From Escherichia coli (GTDB lineage Bacteria; Pseudomonadota; Gammaproteobacteria; Enterobacterales; Enterobacteriaceae): a stretch of 7,900 nucleotides of DNA. Positions within the stretch are counted from its first letter, which is position 1; every line of letters starts with the position of its first letter. This document shows positions 485 to 7,900 of this stretch, piece after piece. The stretch is from NCBI RefSeq assembly GCF_003334255.1, contig NZ_QOWU01000093.1; one strand, 5' to 3'. Both the position numbers and the translations under genes were made by a program. The notes beneath the pieces are model-generated. The model searched no databases. It saw nothing but the letters and a program-made list of their open reading frames with translations, and was not told where the DNA came from.

Positions 485-1056
485 ACTTCAGTCGCTTACA
501 TTCCCTGTGGTGGCAGGCATCTTCCGTTAAGGCGTCAGAGCGTTACCAACGTTATGTTGTCATGGCTCACCTTTCATAGTCGATGCTTATCTGGTGACTG
601 AAACTAGCCGCAGATAAAGAGTGTGAAGTTGATACCATGGAGTGGAGTGACGTGCAGGCAGGAGATTCGCTCTATGCAGGGTTGTGAGATGAATTCAAAC
701 CGGCTGTCAGCGCCAGTAATATTTGAAGATTCGTCCGGTTGTTATCCAGTGTGCATTAAAAACCCAGACATTATGGACAATACAACGGCTTCCATAACAG
801 GGAGGAGCCTGTTTATTATCCGGGCGTAATGACTCACCTTTGTGGGCTTTTTCCCGTCGTGCTTTTAACGTTGAAGGCATTTTCTGCCTGCCGATTCAGG
901 ACAGCGACAAAAGCCATATCAGACTATTGGTCAATGATGACCAGCGTCTGGAGTAGATGATAAGCCAAATTGATAAACTGGAATATGTGATGAAAGTGCA
1001 ACGTAATCAGTCCAATCCGACGATGTTTAACAAGAGTACGGTGTTTTTTCAGTAAG

Positions 1057-1839
1057 TCATTCGTCTTCTGAATCAGGTGTAATGATCTTTACAGAAGCAT
1101 TCCGGCAGTGCGTAACATAATCTGCCGGTAACGGACGCTCGCTAATCAGAACATCAAATGCAGAGAGCGGTGCGAGGCTGGCAGAGGCTACTTCATCGAA
1201 CAAGGCGTGGCGGGCGAGCAAAATTTTCCTTAGTCCACGGGCCATCGCTTTACGCTTAGTGGCAAGATCTTCGGGATTAAACCAGCTGACGCCAAAGTGA
1301 TCATGTACACCGCTGGCGGAAATAAATATTTTTCGCGGATTGAGAGAGTCTAATGGCGAAGAGTTACTGGCATCGTAAAAAGCATCACTTCTGGCACGAT
1401 ACGTACCACCACAAAGTATTGCTGTCACATTAGGTTTTTCATTCAACGCAACAAAGACACGATGTGAGTAACAGATGCCAGTGAAGGTGATTGCATCCGG
1501 GATCATGCTTATAACGAGCGGTATCTCCTGGCCATTATCAAAGAAGATCAGATCATTTTCATTAACCATTCCGGCGGCCAGAATTGCAATAGGTAAGTCA
1601 TCACGATGATTTCTCGGAACGTCCTGGATTACTGGCATGGATGGTGCGGGTTTATGCACCATTACAATATAGCCACCCAGTAGGGTCAGTGGCAGAGGTT
1701 CATCTTCCTGATGGAGATCGCGACGAATAGTCATTACAGAAACTTCCAGCATTCGTGCCGCGTCTTTCAAATGGATTCTGTCGGTTTTCTTAAGTATTTC
1801 AATCAAACGTCGGATACGCTCTTTTTGCTTCGTTTCCAT
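1057..1839 (-). CDS. deoQ: DeoR-family transcriptional repressor (N-terminal HTH, C-terminal sugar-phosphate-binding domain); likely deoxyribose operon regulator DeoQ
   Basis: N-terminus METKQKERIRRLIEILKKTDRIHLKDAARMLEVSVMTIRRDL closely matches my recollection of E. coli DeoR (METRREERIGQLLQELKRSDKLHLKDAAALLGVSEMTIRRDL). ATG is the complement of 1837-1839, with GGAGAG upstream on the minus strand; the ORF track starts one codon earlier at TTG (1840-1842). Divergent from a kinase-permease operon, as in deoQ/deoKPX. Confidence 0.85.
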   Translation of the reverse strand: METKQKERIRRLIEILKKTDRIHLKDAARMLEVSVMTIRRDLHQEDEPLPLTLLGGYIVMVHKPAPSMPVIQDVPRNHRDDLPIAILAAGMVNENDLIFFDNGQEIPLVISMIPDAITFTGICYSHRVFVALNEKPNVTAILCGGTYRARSDAFYDASNSSPLDSLNPRKIFISASGVHDHFGVSWFNPEDLATKRKAMARGLRKILLARHALFDEVASASLAPLSAFDVLISERPLPADYVTHCRNASVKIITPDSEDE

Positions 1840-1856
1840 CAACTCTCTCCGTAAAA

Positions 1857-1872
1857 TGTTATAAAAATAACA
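1857..1872. promoter_or_regulatory. DeoR-type operator-like palindrome TGTTA-N6-TAACA (TGTTATAAAAATAACA) next to the deoQ start
   Basis: A perfect 8-bp inverted repeat AATGTTAT/ATAACATT lies at 1855-1874. The core has the same half-sites and spacing as the E. coli DeoR operator consensus as I recall it (TGTTAGAATTCTAACA). It sits in the deoQ-deoK divergent intergenic region. Confidence 0.45.
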
Positions 1873-2082
1873 TTATGGCATTAGTAAACATTGTTTTAGT
1901 TACCATACTATACGACCGACCCTTTGAAATGAAAAGGGTATAGCCTGCTGAATTTTCGGTATTAATCCTGTTAGGTTGCTTATGATTAGATAGTGTTGGC
2001 CTGAGTGATAAGACTGGAAGTCTATTAAATAAACATCGGGTTGATGTGCTAATCGCGATCTCAGTCACAAATGATGCAAAAG

Positions 2083-2098
2083 TAACATACCAATGTTA
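2083..2098. promoter_or_regulatory. Second palindrome with the same half-sites in everted order (TAACATACCAATGTTA), about 45 bp upstream of the deoK ATG
   Basis: The inverted repeat TAACAT/ATGTTA is read directly from the sequence. A further TTGTTAT half-site lies at 2110-2116 and an AACATTGTT element at 1887-1895. Candidate DeoQ operator cluster. Confidence 0.35.
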
Positions 2099-2141
2099 TT
2101 TAAATACCATTGTTATGCGAAAGTTTATAAGAGGTAGTGAA

Positions 2142-3077
2142 ATGGACATTGCAGTTATTGGTTCCAATATGGTGGATCTCATTACTTACACTAATCAGAT
2201 GCCTAAAGAAGGAGAAACTCTGGAAGCACCTGCCTTCAAAATCGGATGTGGTGGGAAAGGTGCTAATCAAGCGGTGGCGGCGGCTAAATTGAATTCAAAA
2301 GTCCTGATGCTGACTAAAGTAGGTGATGATATTTTTGCGGATAATACTATTCGTAATCTTGAATCTTGGGGAATTAATACCACTTATGTTGAGAAAGTCC
2401 CCTGTACCAGCAGTGGTGTTGCGCCGATCTTTGTTAATGCTAACTCGAGCAATAGTATTTTAATAATTAAGGGGGCGAATAAATTTCTTTCCCCGGAAGA
2501 TATCGATCGAGCTGCAGAAGATCTGAAAAAATGCAAATTGATCGTTTTACAACTGGAAGTTCAACTGGAAACAGTTTACCACGCGATTGAGTTTGGTAAG
2601 AAAAATGGTATTGAAGTGTTATTAAATCCGGCTCCGGCATTGCGTGAGTTAGATATGTCTTATGCCTGCAAATATGATTTCTTTATCCCGAATGAAACAG
2701 AACTGGAAATATTAACCGGTATGTCGGTTGATACTTATGATCATATTCGTTTGGCCGCACGTTCGTTAGTTGATAAAGGGCTGAACAATATTATTGTTAC
2801 CATGAGCGAAAAAGGCGCATTATGGATGACCCGTGATCAGGAAGTCCATGTTCCTGCATTCAAAGTAAATGCTGTTGATACTAGTGGCGCTGGTGACGCA
2901 TTTATTGGTTGCTTTTCCCATTATTATGTTCAAAGCGGTGATGTTGAAGCCGCTTTGAAAAAAGCCGCTTTGAAAAAAGCCGCTCTCTTTGCCGCTTTCA
3001 GCGTCACAGGGAAAGGTACGCAATCATCTTATCCGAGTATTGAACAATTTAATGAATTTTTAACCTTAAACGAATAA
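2142..3077 (+). CDS. deoK: Ribokinase/PfkB-family sugar kinase, likely deoxyribokinase DeoK (311 aa from this start)
   Basis: Start MDIAVIGSNMVDL with SD AAGAGG at 2129-2134, 7 nt upstream of the ATG at 2142. Ribokinase motifs GCGGKGANQAVAAA and DTSGAGDAFIG are present. The ORF-track start at 2046 has no SD and adds a non-conserved leader, so I prefer 2142. Context: divergent DeoR-like regulator and a downstream FucP-like permease. Confidence 0.85.
   Translation: MDIAVIGSNMVDLITYTNQMPKEGETLEAPAFKIGCGGKGANQAVAAAKLNSKVLMLTKVGDDIFADNTIRNLESWGINTTYVEKVPCTSSGVAPIFVNANSSNSILIIKGANKFLSPEDIDRAAEDLKKCKLIVLQLEVQLETVYHAIEFGKKNGIEVLLNPAPALRELDMSYACKYDFFIPNETELEILTGMSVDTYDHIRLAARSLVDKGLNNIIVTMSEKGALWMTRDQEVHVPAFKVNAVDTSGAGDAFIGCFSHYYVQSGDVEAALKKAALKKAALFAAFSVTGKGTQSSYPSIEQFNEFLTLNE
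2949..2985 (+). repeat. Perfect 15-bp direct tandem duplication (GCCGCTTTGAAAAAA x2, plus a partial third copy GCCGCTC) inside deoK, in frame
   Basis: Read directly: unit 1 is 2949-2963 and unit 2 is 2964-2978, giving AALKK-AALKK-AAL in the protein, C-terminal to the GAGD motif. Confidence 0.95.
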
Positions 3078-3104
3078 TCATCCTGCACAGTTAAAGGTAG
3101 CACT

Positions 3105-4421
3105 ATGAACGATAAAAACATCATTCAGATGCCTGATGGGTATCTGAATAAGACCCCCTTGTTCCAGTTTATTTTGTTATCGTGTTTATTCCCGCTATGG
3201 GGATGCGCAGCTGCATTAAATGACATATTAATCACTCAATTCAAAAGTGTATTTTCGCTAAGTAAATTTGCTTCAGCATTGGTGCAGAGCGCATTTTATG
3301 GAGGTTATTTTTTAATTGCAATACCAGCATCCCTTGTGATTAAAAAGACCAGTTATAAGGTGGCAATTTTAATTGGCCTGACGCTGTATATTGGTGGTTG
3401 TACACTTTTTTTCCCTGCCTCGCATATGGCAACCTACACTATGTTCCTTGCGGCTATTTTTGCGATTGCGATTGGCCTGAGCTTCCTTGAAACTGCAGCG
3501 AACACATACAGTTCGATGATTGGTCCAAAAGCCTACGCTACATTGCGGCTCAATATCAGCCAGACCTTTTATCCGATTGGTGCTGCGTCTGGTATTTTAT
3601 TGGGCAAATATCTGGTTTTCTCCGAGGGGGAAAGCCTTGAGAAGCAGATGTCCGGAATGAACGCCGGGCAAATTCACAACTTTAAGGTGCTGATGTTAGA
3701 GAACACCCTTGAACCGTATAAGTATATGATTATGATTCTGGTTGTGGTCATGGTGTTGTTCCTTTTAACCCGCTTCCCAACCTGTAAAGTGGCACAGACA
3801 AGTCACCATAAACGCCCGTCAGCAATGGATACGCTGCGCTATCTGGCTAGAAATCCGCGCTTTCGTCGTGGTATTGTGGCTCAATTCCTTTATGTGGGTA
3901 TGCAGGTCGCAGTATGGTCATTTACCATCCGTCTGGCGCTGGAGTTGGGCGATATCAACGAACGTGATGCTTCAAACTTCATGGTCTACAGCTTTGCCTG
4001 CTTCTTTATTGGCAAGTTTATAGCCAACATCCTTATGACACGTTTTAATCCGGAAAAAGTCCTGATTCTCTATTCCGTTATAGGGGCGCTGTTTCTGGCA
4101 TATGTTGCACTGGCTCCAAGTTTCAGTGCGGTCTATGTCGCCGTCCTGGTAAGTGTTTTGTTTGGCCCTTGCTGGGCGACGATCTATGCAGGAACACTGG
4201 ATACAGTTGATAACCAACATACAGAAATGGCAGGAGCAGTCATTGTTATGGCTATTGTTGGCGCAGCGGTGGTTCCGGCAATTCAGGGATATATTGCAGA
4301 TATGTTCCACTCACTACAGCTTTCATTCCTGGTTTCTATGCTCTGTTTTGTCTATGTCGGTGTCTACTTCTGGCGTGAAAGCAAAGTACGTAATGCACTG
4401 GCTGAAGTCACAGAGTCCTGA
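3105..4421 (+). CDS. deoP: MFS transporter of the L-fucose:H+ symporter (FucP) family; likely deoxyribose permease DeoP (438 aa)
   Basis: Strong resemblance to FucP as I recall it (ALNDILITQF versus NNLNDILLPQF; SAFYGGYFLIAIPASLVIKK versus SAFYFGYFIIPIPAGILMKK), and hydrophobic throughout. SD AAAGG is upstream; the gene starts 27 bp after the deoK stop. Confidence 0.9.
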   Translation: MNDKNIIQMPDGYLNKTPLFQFILLSCLFPLWGCAAALNDILITQFKSVFSLSKFASALVQSAFYGGYFLIAIPASLVIKKTSYKVAILIGLTLYIGGCTLFFPASHMATYTMFLAAIFAIAIGLSFLETAANTYSSMIGPKAYATLRLNISQTFYPIGAASGILLGKYLVFSEGESLEKQMSGMNAGQIHNFKVLMLENTLEPYKYMIMILVVVMVLFLLTRFPTCKVAQTSHHKRPSAMDTLRYLARNPRFRRGIVAQFLYVGMQVAVWSFTIRLALELGDINERDASNFMVYSFACFFIGKFIANILMTRFNPEKVLILYSVIGALFLAYVALAPSFSAVYVAVLVSVLFGPCWATIYAGTLDTVDNQHTEMAGAVIVMAIVGAAVVPAIQGYIADMFHSLQLSFLVSMLCFVYVGVYFWRESKVRNALAEVTES

Positions 4422-4432
4422 GGAGAATCGTT

Positions 4433-4969
4433 ATGAGTACGCGTATTTATTTGTGGCGGGCGCTTTTTGGCGAAAAACCTCGTATCTTGCTGGAAAATAG
4501 TGATTTTACTGTCACGTCTTTTCGCTATGACAGTGGTGTCGAGGGGCTTAAAATTGCAAACAGTCGTGGACATTTAATTATTCTTCCCTGGATGGGGCAG
4601 ATGATTTGGGATGCGCAATTTGATGGACACAGTCTCACCATGTGCAATATGTTTCGCCAGCCTAAACCGGCGACAGAGGTGATAGAAACCTATGGCTGTT
4701 TTGCCTTTCATTCAGGTTTGCTGGCTAATGGCTGCCCATCTGCGGAAGATACTCATCTGCTACACGGTGAAATGGCCTGTGCCGCGATGGATGAAGCATG
4801 GATGGAATTAGAGGGAGATATGTGACGCCTTACCGGGCGTTACGAGTATGTAAAGGGATTCGGGCATCATTATCTGGCTCAGCCAGCAGTGGTCCTTCAC
4901 AAATCCTCTACACTGTTCGATATTAAGATGGCCGTAACCAATCTGGCTTCTGTAGATATGCCACTACAA
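4433..4969 (+). pseudogene. deoX: deoX-like gene (putative aldose-1-epimerase/mutarotase-like), disrupted by an in-frame TGA at 4823-4825 and 3'-truncated by the IS66-family terminus
   Basis: ATG 4433 with SD AGGAG overlaps the deoP stop (translational coupling). The 130-aa ORF ends at TGA, but the same frame stays open for 48 more codons (RLTGRYEYVKGFGHHYLAQPAVVLHKSSTLFDIKMAVTNLASVDMPLQ) up to stops that overlap GTAAGCG at 4970-4975. HLLHGE and VTN...P segments loosely resemble aldose-epimerase-family proteins such as YphB; that family assignment is tentative. Confidence 0.55.
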
Positions 4970-5001
4970 TAGTAAGCGGCTCGCCAGAACCGTCTTAATA
5001 T

Positions 5002-5183
5002 TTACTGAGAGCTCAGATCAACTTTCCAGGGCAACAGATCGCGTACCCGATTTGCCGGCCAGTCCTGGATATGTTCAATGACGTAACGCAGCCATTTTTC
5101 TGGCTCTACATTGTTCAGACGGCATGTGCCGATCAGCGAGTACAACACCGCCGCATGTTCGCCACCGCTGTCGGAACCCGCGA
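5002..5183 (-). CDS. tnpC: IS66-family transposase TnpC, 3' exon (C-terminal 60 aa: (F)AGSDSGGEHAAVLYSLIGTCRLNNVEPEKWLRYVIEHIQDWPANRVRDLLPWKVDLSSQ)
   Basis: Hand translation of the minus strand. It joins in frame to the upstream exon across the proposed intron, using T at 7008 plus TC at 5183-5182 to form the Phe codon. It is not in the ORF track because it has no start codon of its own. Confidence 0.75.
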
Positions 5184-5186
5184 GTC

Positions 5187-5222
5187 GAGTCAGCCGGAGA
5201 GAATTTCACTCCCCGGCTGCTC
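5187..5222 (-). ncRNA. Group II intron domain VI with bulged branch-point adenosine (plus 5190, 7 nt from the 3' splice site)
   Basis: Minus strand GAGCAGCCGGGGAG / loop UGAAAUU / CUCUCCGGCUG-A-CUC forms a 14-bp helix with one bulged A, followed by GAC and then the exon. Confidence 0.6.
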
Positions 5223-5225
5223 ACG

Positions 5226-5259
5226 GAACCGTACGTGACACTCTCGCGTCATACGGCTC
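5226..5259 (-). ncRNA. Group II intron domain V (catalytic hairpin)
   Basis: Minus strand GAGCCGUAUGACGCGAGAGUGUCACGUACGGUUC: 34 nt with the AGC triad at positions 2-4, a 2-nt bulge on the 3' strand, a GAGA (GNRA) tetraloop and G-U wobbles at the canonical places. It starts 4 nt after the IEP stop. Confidence 0.88.
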
Positions 5260-5263
5260 TTGA

Positions 5264-6496
5264 TCACTCATTCGATGCACGTAGTAAATACCAGTGGACA
5301 AATAGCTTCGGATACTCCTTCCTTACCAGCGTCAGCTTTCGCTGAGCCCTCCGGTTCGAAAGTCTGTATTTAGACTGCATCCACTTGAGCAGACGTGACT
5401 GCATTGCACTCCACAGTCGATAGTTGAAATTTCTGGACCAGAACTTTCCGTAGTACTCGATCCAGCCTCTCACTATCGCATTGTAGCGCCTCGCAAAATC
5501 CAGCAAACTCTCAGCTGTTGAGCGATGTATACGCCACTTCTTGATTGTTTCTGTTATTTTGCGCATTGCTGCATTTGACGCACCCGGCATGCATTTTCGG
5601 TACAGTTCGCCTTTGAAATTCTTCAGCGTACGCACTTTGAAGTCATATCCGAGAAAGGTGAAACTCGTTGCGACGTTTCTCCTTTTAAACGTGTCAATGT
5701 AGGCGATATTCGTTTTCCCTGCATTCAGGACCAGCCCGACTTCCGAGAAGCGCTCCGATAACCTGTTCTTCAGCCTTGTTGCATCACTCATTCGTGAACA
5801 ATGTACTACAATATCATCAGCGTACCTCTCAAACGGTACCCCCCGATATTCTCTTTCCATCCACAAATCAAATGCATAGTGAAGGAACAAGTTAGCAAGT
5901 AGCGGACTAATGACCCCGCCCTGCGGAGTGCCTCGTGTTCGGGTTATTAATTCTCCATTTTCACAACTCTGCATTGGTGCTTCCATCCAGCGTCGACAGT
6001 ACAGGATGACCCATTTAGGCATCCCGTGGTGTTCCAGTGCTTTGAGCACCAGATCATGTCTCACATGGTCGAAAAACGCACTGATGTCCACTTCCAGTAT
6101 CCAGCTATAACGCCAGCACCGGATGGCACATTGTTTCAGAGCGTCATGAGCTGATTTGCCTGGTCGGTAACCATAAGAATCAGCATGGAAAATCGGGTCA
6201 AGCTTTTCTTCCATAAAAAGTTTTATCGCTCCCTGAGCAATTCGATCGGATACTGTTGGGATCCCCAGAATGCGCTCCTTGCCATTCGGCTTCGGGATCC
6301 GTTTTTCCAGCACAGGTGGCGGAAACCATGTTCCCGAACATAGCCGGTTCCAGATCTTGTATAGATTGCCATCACGTTGCTGGTCGAACATTTTCAAAGT
6401 CTGTCCGTCGCATCCGGGGGCTCCCTTGTTGCGACGCACATCCAGATATGATGCCCAGACCAGTGCTTTTGGTATTTCGAATGATTTTCGTTGCAT
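5264..6496 (-). CDS. Group II intron-encoded reverse transcriptase/maturase (410 aa; RT domains 0-7 plus X/maturase domain, no recognisable C-terminal DNA-binding/endonuclease extension)
   Basis: RT motifs are present: NKGAPGCDG (RT0), GIPTVSDRIAQ, YGYRPGKSAHDAL, TPQGGVISPLLANL and YADD (plus 5813-5824). The maturase motif RGWIEYYG follows. ATG start at 6494-6496; the reading frame is intact. Confidence 0.92.
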   Translation of the reverse strand: MQRKSFEIPKALVWASYLDVRRNKGAPGCDGQTLKMFDQQRDGNLYKIWNRLCSGTWFPPPVLEKRIPKPNGKERILGIPTVSDRIAQGAIKLFMEEKLDPIFHADSYGYRPGKSAHDALKQCAIRCWRYSWILEVDISAFFDHVRHDLVLKALEHHGMPKWVILYCRRWMEAPMQSCENGELITRTRGTPQGGVISPLLANLFLHYAFDLWMEREYRGVPFERYADDIVVHCSRMSDATRLKNRLSERFSEVGLVLNAGKTNIAYIDTFKRRNVATSFTFLGYDFKVRTLKNFKGELYRKCMPGASNAAMRKITETIKKWRIHRSTAESLLDFARRYNAIVRGWIEYYGKFWSRNFNYRLWSAMQSRLLKWMQSKYRLSNRRAQRKLTLVRKEYPKLFVHWYLLRASNE

Positions 6497-7007
6497 CAGT
6501 TACATCATCCCCTTATGGGTTGTGTCTTTTGCAATGAATGTGATCCCCATCCCTTCGCTCCAGACCCATTACAGATCTTTCATCACTACTACGAATGGGT
6601 CCGCCCCTGTTTCCCGATACGTGCCGGAAACAGGTTCTCACGTTCCCTGAGATGGTCTGGCCCGGGATCCTGCTGCCTTAACACCGGATGCCGCGCAGTC
6701 AGTAAGCAGGTGTCTTCTGCGCTTATCAGAGGACGGCTGTACGGCCCCATTTTGACATCATCTAAGATTTCGATGCTTCATCGGACAGTTTACTTTCGTT
6801 CAGCTTCCCGAACCCCACGTGACAGTAGATCTCTGCCTTTTCCCGAGTCGCTCACCACTACATTCCTTAGAATGAAGCAGCACCGGGTCGTTTGGTCAGT
6901 GTTCCTGCAAACCCTGACCGGAGGGCCCACCTCCACCCACCTCAGAGCATGGATAACTTATGCTGCAATTTTCATATTGCCGCTATCAGTTCTCCTTCGT
7001 GACACAC
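6497..7007 (-). ncRNA. Group II intron domains I-III (and the start of IV), 5' ribozyme portion
   Basis: Position and length fit, being about 0.5 kb between the 5' GUGUG and the IEP start. The internal secondary structure was not resolved by eye. Confidence 0.55.
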
Positions 7008-7823
7008 ACAACCAGTTCTTCCGGCCCACGGCCACACCCCGTAAGGCGTTCTCTGCGATGTTGTTGTCGATTTCCACCCAGCCATTGCTGCAGTACACGT
7101 TCAGGGCCTCCCACTGTTTCAGCAGGTATGCGAACGCTTTCGCCGTATCCGAGTGACGCGACAGGGTTTTCATCTTTTCACGCAGCCAGCTTTCCAGGGA
7201 TTTCAGCAGCGGTTTCGTTTTCAACTGACGTTCGGCAAGGCGCTGCTCCGCCGTCATTCCCCTTATCTCTGCCTCGATGGCGTACAGTTCGCCGATCCGT
7301 TTCAGCGCTTCCTCCGTCAGGGCTGACGGGGTGCGAACGTGCACATCGTGGATTTTACGGCGGGCGTGAGCCCAGCAGGCGGCTTCCGTTATCCGGCCAT
7401 CCCGGTACAGCTCGTTGAACCCGGCGTATGCATCCGCCTGCAGTACACCACTGAACCCCGCAAGATGGGTCTGCGGATGGATGCCTTTTCTGTCCGGGCT
7501 GTAAGCGAACCACACCGCCGGCGCCAGCGTTGACCCGGCGTTACGGTCGTCACGAACGTAGGTCCATAACCGCCCGGTCTTCGTTTTCTTATTGCCTGGC
7601 AACAGCACCGGGACAGGCGTGTCATCAGCATGGAGCTTACCGTCAGTCAGCACATAGTCCTGAAGCGCTTCTTCCAGCGGTGACAGTAGCCGGCAGCATG
7701 CATCCACCCAGCCCGACAGCAGTGAACGACTCAGCTCCACACCTTGCCGGCCGTATATTTCTGACTGGCGATACAGCGGGGTGTGCTCTGCATACTTCGA
7801 GGTCAACACGCGGGCCAGCAGCC
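7008..7823 (-). CDS. tnpC: IS66-family transposase TnpC, 5' exon (central region, N-terminally truncated)
   Basis: Translation ...[34 protein letters not shown]...[20 protein letters not shown] matches the IS66 TnpC pattern. ORF-track entry 6958..7809 is this frame reading 16 codons into the intron before a stop. No IS66-like coding continues beyond 7823. Confidence 0.75.
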
Positions 7824-7900
7824 CATAAGCGCTAACTTAAGGGTTGTGGTATTACGCCTGATATGATTTAACGTGCCGATGAATTACTCTCACGATAACT
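7824..7900. mobile_element. Probable IS186-like (IS4-family) terminal region abutting and truncating the IS66-family tnpC
   Basis: CATAAGCGCTAACTTAAGGGTTG at 7824-7846 matches my recollection of the IS186 terminal inverted repeat. It is preceded by a GC-rich stretch (GCGGGCCAGCAGCC), in keeping with the GC-rich targets I recall for IS186. The tnpC frame hits a stop at 7837-7839. This rests on memory only. Confidence 0.45.

Follow-up and report, generated by a model that had tools for sequence, protein, structure and literature searches.

Why does the deoX gene at this Escherichia coli locus stop after 130 codons, and what has become of the rest of it? The window, by which we mean the whole 7,900-nucleotide stretch of DNA that was analyzed (contig NZ_QOWU01000093.1 of assembly GCF_003334255.1), contains a deoX frame that ends at an in-frame TGA, stays open beyond it, and then meets the end of an insertion sequence. 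The original prediction was that the gene had been inactivated twice, by a nonsense change and by an IS66-family insertion, with a sequencing error or a recoding site as other explanations for the TGA. If both lesions are real, then the question becomes which of them silenced the gene and how the present arrangement arose.

The deo locus and its truncated third gene

[quoted passage not shown] The deoQ/deoKPX genes have been described in Salmonella enterica and in E. coli pathogenicity islands (Christensen et al. 2003, PMID 14526015, and Bernier-Febreau et al. 2004, PMID 15385522, as these are cited in PMC7924626, PMC5382810, and PMC7545054). The window matches E. coli accessory DNA with genes annotated as a DeoR-family regulator, a ribokinase-like kinase, a fucP-like permease, and an "aldose 1-epimerase family protein" (1,014 nt, 337 aa), and the locus with these four genes was assigned to deoQ/deoKPX. 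Its features are as follows.

1057 to 1839, minus strand: deoQ, DeoR-family repressor, 260 aa, open frame; differs from the D8 protein only by D234E
2142 to 3077, plus strand: deoK, deoxyribokinase of the PfkB family, 311 aa, open frame
3105 to 4421, plus strand: deoP, MFS permease, annotated as fucP-like, 438 aa, open frame; Pfam MFS_1
4433 to 4971, plus strand: deoX remnant, nt 1 to 539 of 1,014 (codons 1 to 179 plus 2 nt)
4823 to 4825, plus strand: premature TGA, derived from Leu131 TTA by a T-to-G change at 4824
4970 to 4972, plus strand: TAG at the deoX/IS junction, which arises from the fusion itself (CAA TA/G TAA, with the slash at the fusion point)

The open reading frame list of the window gives a 130-aa frame at 4433 to 4825, and translation of 4433 to 4975 yielded 130 codons, the TGA at 4823 to 4825, 48 sense codons, the TAG at 4970 to 4972, and a TAA at 4973 to 4975. 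Alignment with three intact 1,014-nt reference genes, from E. coli strain 48, S7, and D8, agreed with this translation and bore out the identification of the gene as deoX. The window sequence was identical to the strain 48 allele at 538/539 nt, the single difference being the T-to-G change at 4824, and was 97 to 99% identical to the S7 and D8 alleles. Homology to all three ran unbroken across the TGA and stopped exactly at window position 4971, which is deoX nt 539. Because homology continues past the TGA, the 48-codon open frame is homologous deoX coding sequence rather than a chance open frame. Thus, the possibility that deoX orthologues end naturally near residue 130 and are followed by unrelated sequence was contradicted by the intact alleles, which are 1,014 nt long. 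The remnant also occupies the expected position as the third gene of deoK-deoP-deoX, beside the divergent deoQ. An alignment had been proposed as a check on whether the stop replaces a conserved tryptophan codon (TGG). It does not; codon 131 was TTA, for leucine, in all of the intact alleles examined.

Intact DeoX (337 aa) has a single Pfam domain, DUF4432 (PF14486), with model positions 2 to 303 aligned to residues 34 to 335; as a query it matched no NCBIfam model and, by sequence, no PDB structure. A complete DUF4432 domain is not present in residues 1 to 130, which can still be encoded, or in residues 1 to 179, which could be encoded without the TGA. In relatives that lack the TGA the 179-aa product is terminated by the junction TAG. 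With more than half of DUF4432 missing, neither the 130-aa nor the 179-aa product would be expected to fold or to be active. From its sequence the remnant is classed as a pseudogene and not as a functional member of the DeoX family.

Anatomy of the element that truncates deoX

The sequence GTAAGCGGCTCGCCAGAACCGT at 4972 matched the end of ISCro1 in S7 and the end of the IS66 element in D8, and the outer flanks of these elements were mutually unrelated. The prediction that deoX meets an IS66-family terminus at 4972 was therefore correct; the inverted repeat there starts GTAAGCG. What follows the terminus is a composite of several mobile elements.

4972 to 5183, minus strand: right end of an ISCro1-like IS66 element, 212 bp, with inverted repeat GTAAGCGGCTCGCCAGAACCGTCT and the 3' end of tnpC
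5184 to 7007, minus strand: group II intron in tnpC, 1,824 nt, from Rfam and Pfam; ends GUGUG...AC read from the sequence
5264 to 6496: ltrA reverse transcriptase/maturase frame, 410 aa, open; Pfam RVT_1 and GIIM
7008 to 7824, minus strand: tnpC fragment of a different IS66 member, in register onward from the intron site (ISCro1 position 213)
7825 to 7900, plus strand: end of an IS4-family, IS421/IS186-like element in the IS66 tnpC, which runs off the window

The 212-bp segment was 99.5% identical to ISCro1 of OkiPb01677 and 96% identical to that of S7, and the corresponding open reading frame in ED1a had the Pfam domain DDE_Tnp_IS66_C. The intron was recognized both from ribozyme domains that Rfam placed on the minus strand (RF00029 at 5184 to 5261, 57 bits; RF01999 at 6818 to 6934, 93 bits) and from its reverse transcriptase/maturase frame, and it was 97.4% identical to the intron in D8. 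The segment beyond the intron was 93% identical to the IS66 element beside the myo-inositol (iol) island of STO_Bone1B and 73 to 75% identical to ISCro1. The same second IS66 type extended over 2.8 kb of L004, a 150-kb contig that carries the TGA, lacks the IS421 insertion, and displays the whole element; there it was 98% identical to the STO_Bone1B element. IS66 genes tnpA, tnpB, and tnpC were all found in L004 and ED1a (PF01527, PF05717, PF03050, PF13817), and the window has only tnpC fragments.

Positions 7810 to 7900 matched places annotated as IS421 family transposase in 2,188 genomes, and 76 bp of that element lie within the window. Its target was the GC-rich sequence CAGCAGCCC/CGGTCCGG of the IS66 tnpC. 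Contigs L004 and L013 are otherwise near-identical to the window and have no IS421; their IS66 sequence simply continues. Thus, of the events at the locus, the arrival of IS421 is the latest.

The present arrangement is not a simple insertion

IS66 elements are flanked by an 8-bp target-site duplication after simple insertion, and ISCro1 in OkiPb01677, which has GTCCACTC on both sides, served as a positive control for a clean 8-bp duplication. Thus, one would be expected here. In L004 the element is bounded by the inverted repeats GTAAGCGGCTCGCCAGAACCGTCT, at 10540, and AGACGGTTCAGGCTGTACGCTTAC, ending at 14798, which are 79% complementary over 28 nt. In L004 and L015 the sequences bordering the element were CTACAATA next to deoX and CATTTGTT at the opposite end. 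These differ, so there is no 8-bp target duplication for this copy. An apparent match of 8 bp between the flanks of the window and D8 elements was rejected as partial and due to chance.

Past the far inverted repeat in L004 lie an MFS transporter gene, iolG2, and iolD, which belong to the iol island, and the far end of the element in ED1a likewise adjoins iol genes. STO_Bone1B has the identical junction between the IS left end and iol; the other end of its IS meets a helicase remnant, and there is no deoX nearby. It had been proposed to look for the missing 3' part of deoX beyond the far end of the composite. This was done, and none was found; nucleotides 540 to 1014 of deoX (475 nt) were absent from 16/16 truncated-allele loci, in sequence reaching up to approximately 10 kb downstream. 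The IS66 terminus at 4972 thus stands as predicted, whereas a simple insertion does not, and the sequences indicate that the present arrangement is the product of a deletion or rearrangement.

It is nonetheless necessary to consider a simple ISCro1 insertion in which the 3' half of deoX is intact past the element or was moved elsewhere by inversion. ISCro1 inserts repeatedly around deoX, and one locus (L019) has an intact, intron-free ISCro1 at the identical deoX junction. In addition, nine contigs from other assemblies (L025 to L030) start at deoX nt 540 (one starts at nt 539). These contigs are the reciprocal side of the break in the window, and three of them (L026, L028, and L029) extend past the deoX stop into native flank. 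However, they carry an S7-like allele and have neither IS bases nor the expected CTACAATA duplication ahead of deoX, and they most likely represent an assembly-graph branch in genomes with both intact and truncated deo copies. An exact look-up of the 3' product from M181 of the strain 48 allele retrieved nothing, and it was the S7-type allele that gave the nt-540 contigs. The junction pattern was unmatched in a collection of genome contigs that holds one genome per species and so carries little weight. The reciprocal junction CTTAC+CTACAATA+TATGTGCC was unmatched in metagenome contigs, a weak result because the forward junction, used as a control, matched one contig only. Given that the far end in L004 and ED1a adjoins iol genes behind a nonmatching flank, with no deoX 3' sequence within 6 to 10 kb, a simple insertion is unlikely, and a deletion or rearrangement is preferred.

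A chimeric IS66 element joined at a group II intron

The type of IS66 element changes exactly at the intron, with ISCro1 on one side and the other IS66 member on the opposite side, in the window (4972 to 7824) as well as in L001 (9122 to 13465) and L014 (9559 to 12000). In D8 the same intron sits at the identical tnpC site, between nucleotides 212 and 213 from the IS end, with ISCro1-like sequence to either side. Strain 536, by sequence match, also carries this D8-type ISCro1-like element with the intron, and L019, with its intact intron-free ISCro1, shares the deoX junction. A switch of IS type exactly at the intron suggests recombination through intron copies.

It is possible that the 3' part of deoX was lost when two copies of a single group II intron recombined homologously. 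One copy would have been within the ISCro1 in deoX and the other within a different IS66 element bordering the iol island, and the exchange would have fused the two elements and removed the intervening DNA. The 3' flank of deoX would then also be a preferred landing zone for ISCro1. We offer this proposal tentatively. The recombination partner, a second IS66 type with the intron, was not observed; pINV of RMDEC465 was considered as its source and rejected as too mosaic. If the proposal is true, then mobile introns nested within insertion sequences would provide portable sites for recombination through which genomic islands of E. coli are reshaped.

Order of the two lesions

The exact 179-aa product, in which the leucine is restored and which ends at the junction TAG, was found in 470 index blocks, including ED1a (CU928162.2), a figure that possibly also counts contigs merely terminating at nt 539. 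The exact 130-aa product was found in 76 index blocks and on approximately 50 contigs in NCBI, ENA, and Logan. The junction is present in all 16 of the truncated-allele loci retrieved, of which 10 have TGA and 6 have TTA. Records that combine the junction with TTA outnumber those that combine it with TGA. The common junction, the TTA in intact alleles, and the relative rarity of the TGA type indicate, by parsimony, that the cut came first and the nonsense change later. Thus, on the available sequences, it was most likely the IS cut that first inactivated the gene, and the TGA would have arisen afterward in a remnant that no longer functioned. This order is inferred from parsimony.

The distribution of the remaining differences fits this order. 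Over 7,238 bp the window differed from L016 and L018 at four positions (4525, 4534, 4824, and 7375), three of which lie inside the 539-bp remnant. Under a uniform model, the probability of at least three of four differences in the remnant is approximately 0.002, or approximately 0.016 if two adjacent changes are counted as one event, both figures being post hoc. This clustering fits a neutrally drifting remnant among other, constrained genes.

A very unlikely alternative is that deoX was still intact when the TGA arose, and that selection on the gene was thereby relaxed before the IS cut it, an order that the title of the original prediction could be taken to imply. The present sequence can be reached by either order. 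Furthermore, at 4525 and 4534 the window agrees with the intact alleles and it is the ED1a type that has the derived bases, so that the window type does not simply fall inside the group of ED1a-type sequences sampled. The ED1a type has two derived synonymous changes in common with L019 but the chimera in common with the window type. Such a pattern is not a clean tree, and some recombination between lineages must be assumed. However, far more records, ED1a among them, combine this junction with TTA, and a TGA-first history requires either a second, identical junction or a reversion or conversion of TGA to TTA. A full-length deoX with the TGA at codon 131 was found neither among 954 genomes nor among the products of split genes that were searched; exact look-up of products starting from M166 returned other frameshift alleles and one scaffold-gap artifact, and no TGA131 allele with an intact 3' part. 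The older IS cut therefore remains the preferred order.

The TGA is genuine and has no recoding role

Of 954 complete E. coli genomes in which this deoX segment is present, none has the TGA at codon 131, which might be taken to mean that it is a sequencing or assembly error and that the IS cut is the sole real lesion. The deoX/IS junction was likewise absent from this complete-genome E. coli collection, to which the RefSeq accession of ED1a does not belong, and frequencies in the collection are therefore uninformative for this lineage. The suggestion of an error was not sustained, as the 130-aa product recurs on approximately 50 contigs from several assemblies, and all 10 retrieved loci with that product, which come from different samples, carry both the TGA and the junction and are 99.7 to 100% identical to the window. 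One of them, the NCBI contig L008 (GCA_965136505.1), is identical to the window at 7,900/7,900 positions. With samples and assemblers that differ, a single faulty source for all of the TGA records is unlikely, and an error can be given almost no credence. A stop codon is also not surprising in such a remnant; 61 of the 1,611 possible single substitutions in it (3.8%) yield one, and a nonsense change among a few neutral substitutions is unremarkable.

Programmed recoding of the TGA, as selenocysteine or by read-through in a functional gene, is scarcely conceivable. In E. coli, termination is comparatively leaky at a UGA followed by C. The base after this TGA is C, the frame is open for 48 further codons, and the T-to-G change gives a local hairpin one extra G-U pair. 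However, the ancestral codon is leucine TTA in all intact alleles examined, the open frame is plain homologous deoX sequence, and read-through would stop at the junction TAG after 179 aa with more than half of DUF4432 missing. At the TGA site no Rfam family matched, and the local fold was no better than that of shuffled sequences (z = -0.53). A selenocysteine or programmed UGA codon would be expected at a position conserved as Sec or Cys, with a SECIS-like hairpin and a full reading frame after it. These features are lacking, and the sequence comparisons identify the TGA as ordinary gene decay.

Proposed sequence of events

We consider it highly probable that deoX in the window is a nonfunctional remnant that was cut by an IS66 element now present as a chimeric, rearranged element, that later acquired a neutral TGA, and that was followed by IS421. 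In the first step of the proposed history, which the junction shows directly, the right end of an ISCro1-like IS66 element cut deoX after nt 539; the last 475 nt are gone from the locus. In the second step, the ISCro1 element in deoX, with its intron, would have undergone recombination with another IS66 element bordering the iol island, probably by way of the intron. This would have deleted the DNA between the two elements and left the structure that is seen in the contigs. In the third step, a T-to-G transversion would have changed Leu131 TTA to TGA in one sublineage, as a neutral change whose place in the order follows from parsimony. In the last step, which is directly visible in the sequence, the IS66 tnpC of the window strain received an IS421 insertion.

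The other operon genes and other losses of deoX

The original prediction held that deoQ, deoK, and deoP look intact and that selection has been relaxed on the third gene only. The frames of all three are indeed open. In relatives deoQ carries the annotation DeoR family regulator, and the identical gene in L004 has the Pfam domains HTH_DeoR and DeoRC; the product of deoP differs from the strain 48 protein by a single amino acid change, N54K. There is a caveat for deoK, in which a 15-bp in-frame tandem duplication at 2947 to 2961 (AAGCCGCTTTGAAAA) repeats AALKK (311 versus 306 aa) and which also has C178Y relative to WP_000350265.1 in the alignment with strain 48, S7, D8, and L011. The duplication may be present or absent within both the TGA and the TTA types, and is absent in L011 and in ED1a L015; because it is polymorphic in both types, it is a slippage-prone repeat. 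Therefore, relaxed selection is compatible with the data for deoX, whereas its confinement to deoX is not established, given the duplication in deoK. As deoX is the last gene of the operon, neither of its lesions would be expected to be polar on deoK or deoP. Beside deoQ, the segment homologous to 828 to 1054 is annotated in relatives as an acetolactate synthase small-subunit or ACT-domain pseudogene (L001 1624 to 1850; L003 542 to 768).

Other deoX alleles carry frameshifts in the GGGTTCGGG stretch, a 1-bp deletion and a 1-bp insertion, in L031 (nt 430) and in L033, L035, and L036 (nt 426); some of these assemblies also split deoK, which makes their sequencing quality uncertain. L034 was rejected as a similar frameshift allele, as it has a scaffold gap of Ns. 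These alleles hint at repeated loss of deoX.

ISCro1-type IS66 elements were also seen at four sites within approximately 250 bp after the stop of an intact deoX (L003 5387, L021 4835, L022 4763, and L023 4869). The four insertions are in unrelated E. coli genomes and have the same orientation throughout, and the copy in OkiPb01677 has the clean 8-bp duplication GTCCACTC. The region just 3' of deoX may be a local hot spot for ISCro1 insertion.

Implications

The 130-aa open reading frame has the public name "DUF4432 domain-containing protein" and should be marked as a pseudogene remnant. The lineage of the window and the wider ED1a-type lineage lack DeoX, and their use of 2-deoxy-D-ribose may be poorer. 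Reportedly, Christensen et al. in 2003 found deoX to be important for optimal, though not for all, deoxyribose use. The phenotype may thus be partial, with growth possibly retained in part. This bears on metabolic models in which deoxyribose use is scored on the presence of only deoK and deoP.

In addition, the locus offers a compact example of mobile elements nested in one another (an IS66 end, a group II intron, a second IS66, and IS421) and illustrates how secondary lesions accumulate in a pseudogene. It has little importance beyond annotation. All of the kinds of element are known and the sequences are already public; the possible intron-mediated recombination of IS66 elements is the only mildly novel angle.

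Comparison with known systems

The window has the same gene order as the deoQ/deoKPX loci of Salmonella and E. coli, with deoQ divergent from deoK-deoP-deoX, in accessory DNA between mobile elements, and its nucleotide identity to intact E. coli deo loci is 97 to 99.8%. Unlike the intact loci, it has a deoX cut to the first 539 nt, the TGA at codon 131, and the 15-bp duplication in deoK.

The closest counterpart is the ED1a (CU928162.2) type, which has the identical deoX/IS66 junction, the chimeric IS66 element with its intron, and the iol flank, and which is 99.7 to 99.95% identical over window positions 585 to 7824. In contrast to the window, the ED1a type has TTA at codon 131 (the 179-aa product), differs at 4525 and 4534, and has no IS421. 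The left-hand context diverges near window position 585 (compared with L015 to L020, positions 1 to 2168); the ED1a type has ykgM, ykgO, and ykgR there, whereas the window has DUF3987, AlpA, YagK/inovirus Gp2, and DUF7828.

With ISCro1 and the IS66 family the element shares the GTAAGCG inverted repeat, the tnpA-tnpB-tnpC organization, and the DDE_Tnp_IS66 transposase. Unlike ISCro1, this copy combines parts of two IS66 members that meet at a group II intron, lacks an 8-bp duplication, and is broken by IS421. The ISCro1-like elements with the intron in D8 and 536 have the same intron at the same tnpC site; the exons in the window, in contrast, belong to two different IS66 members.
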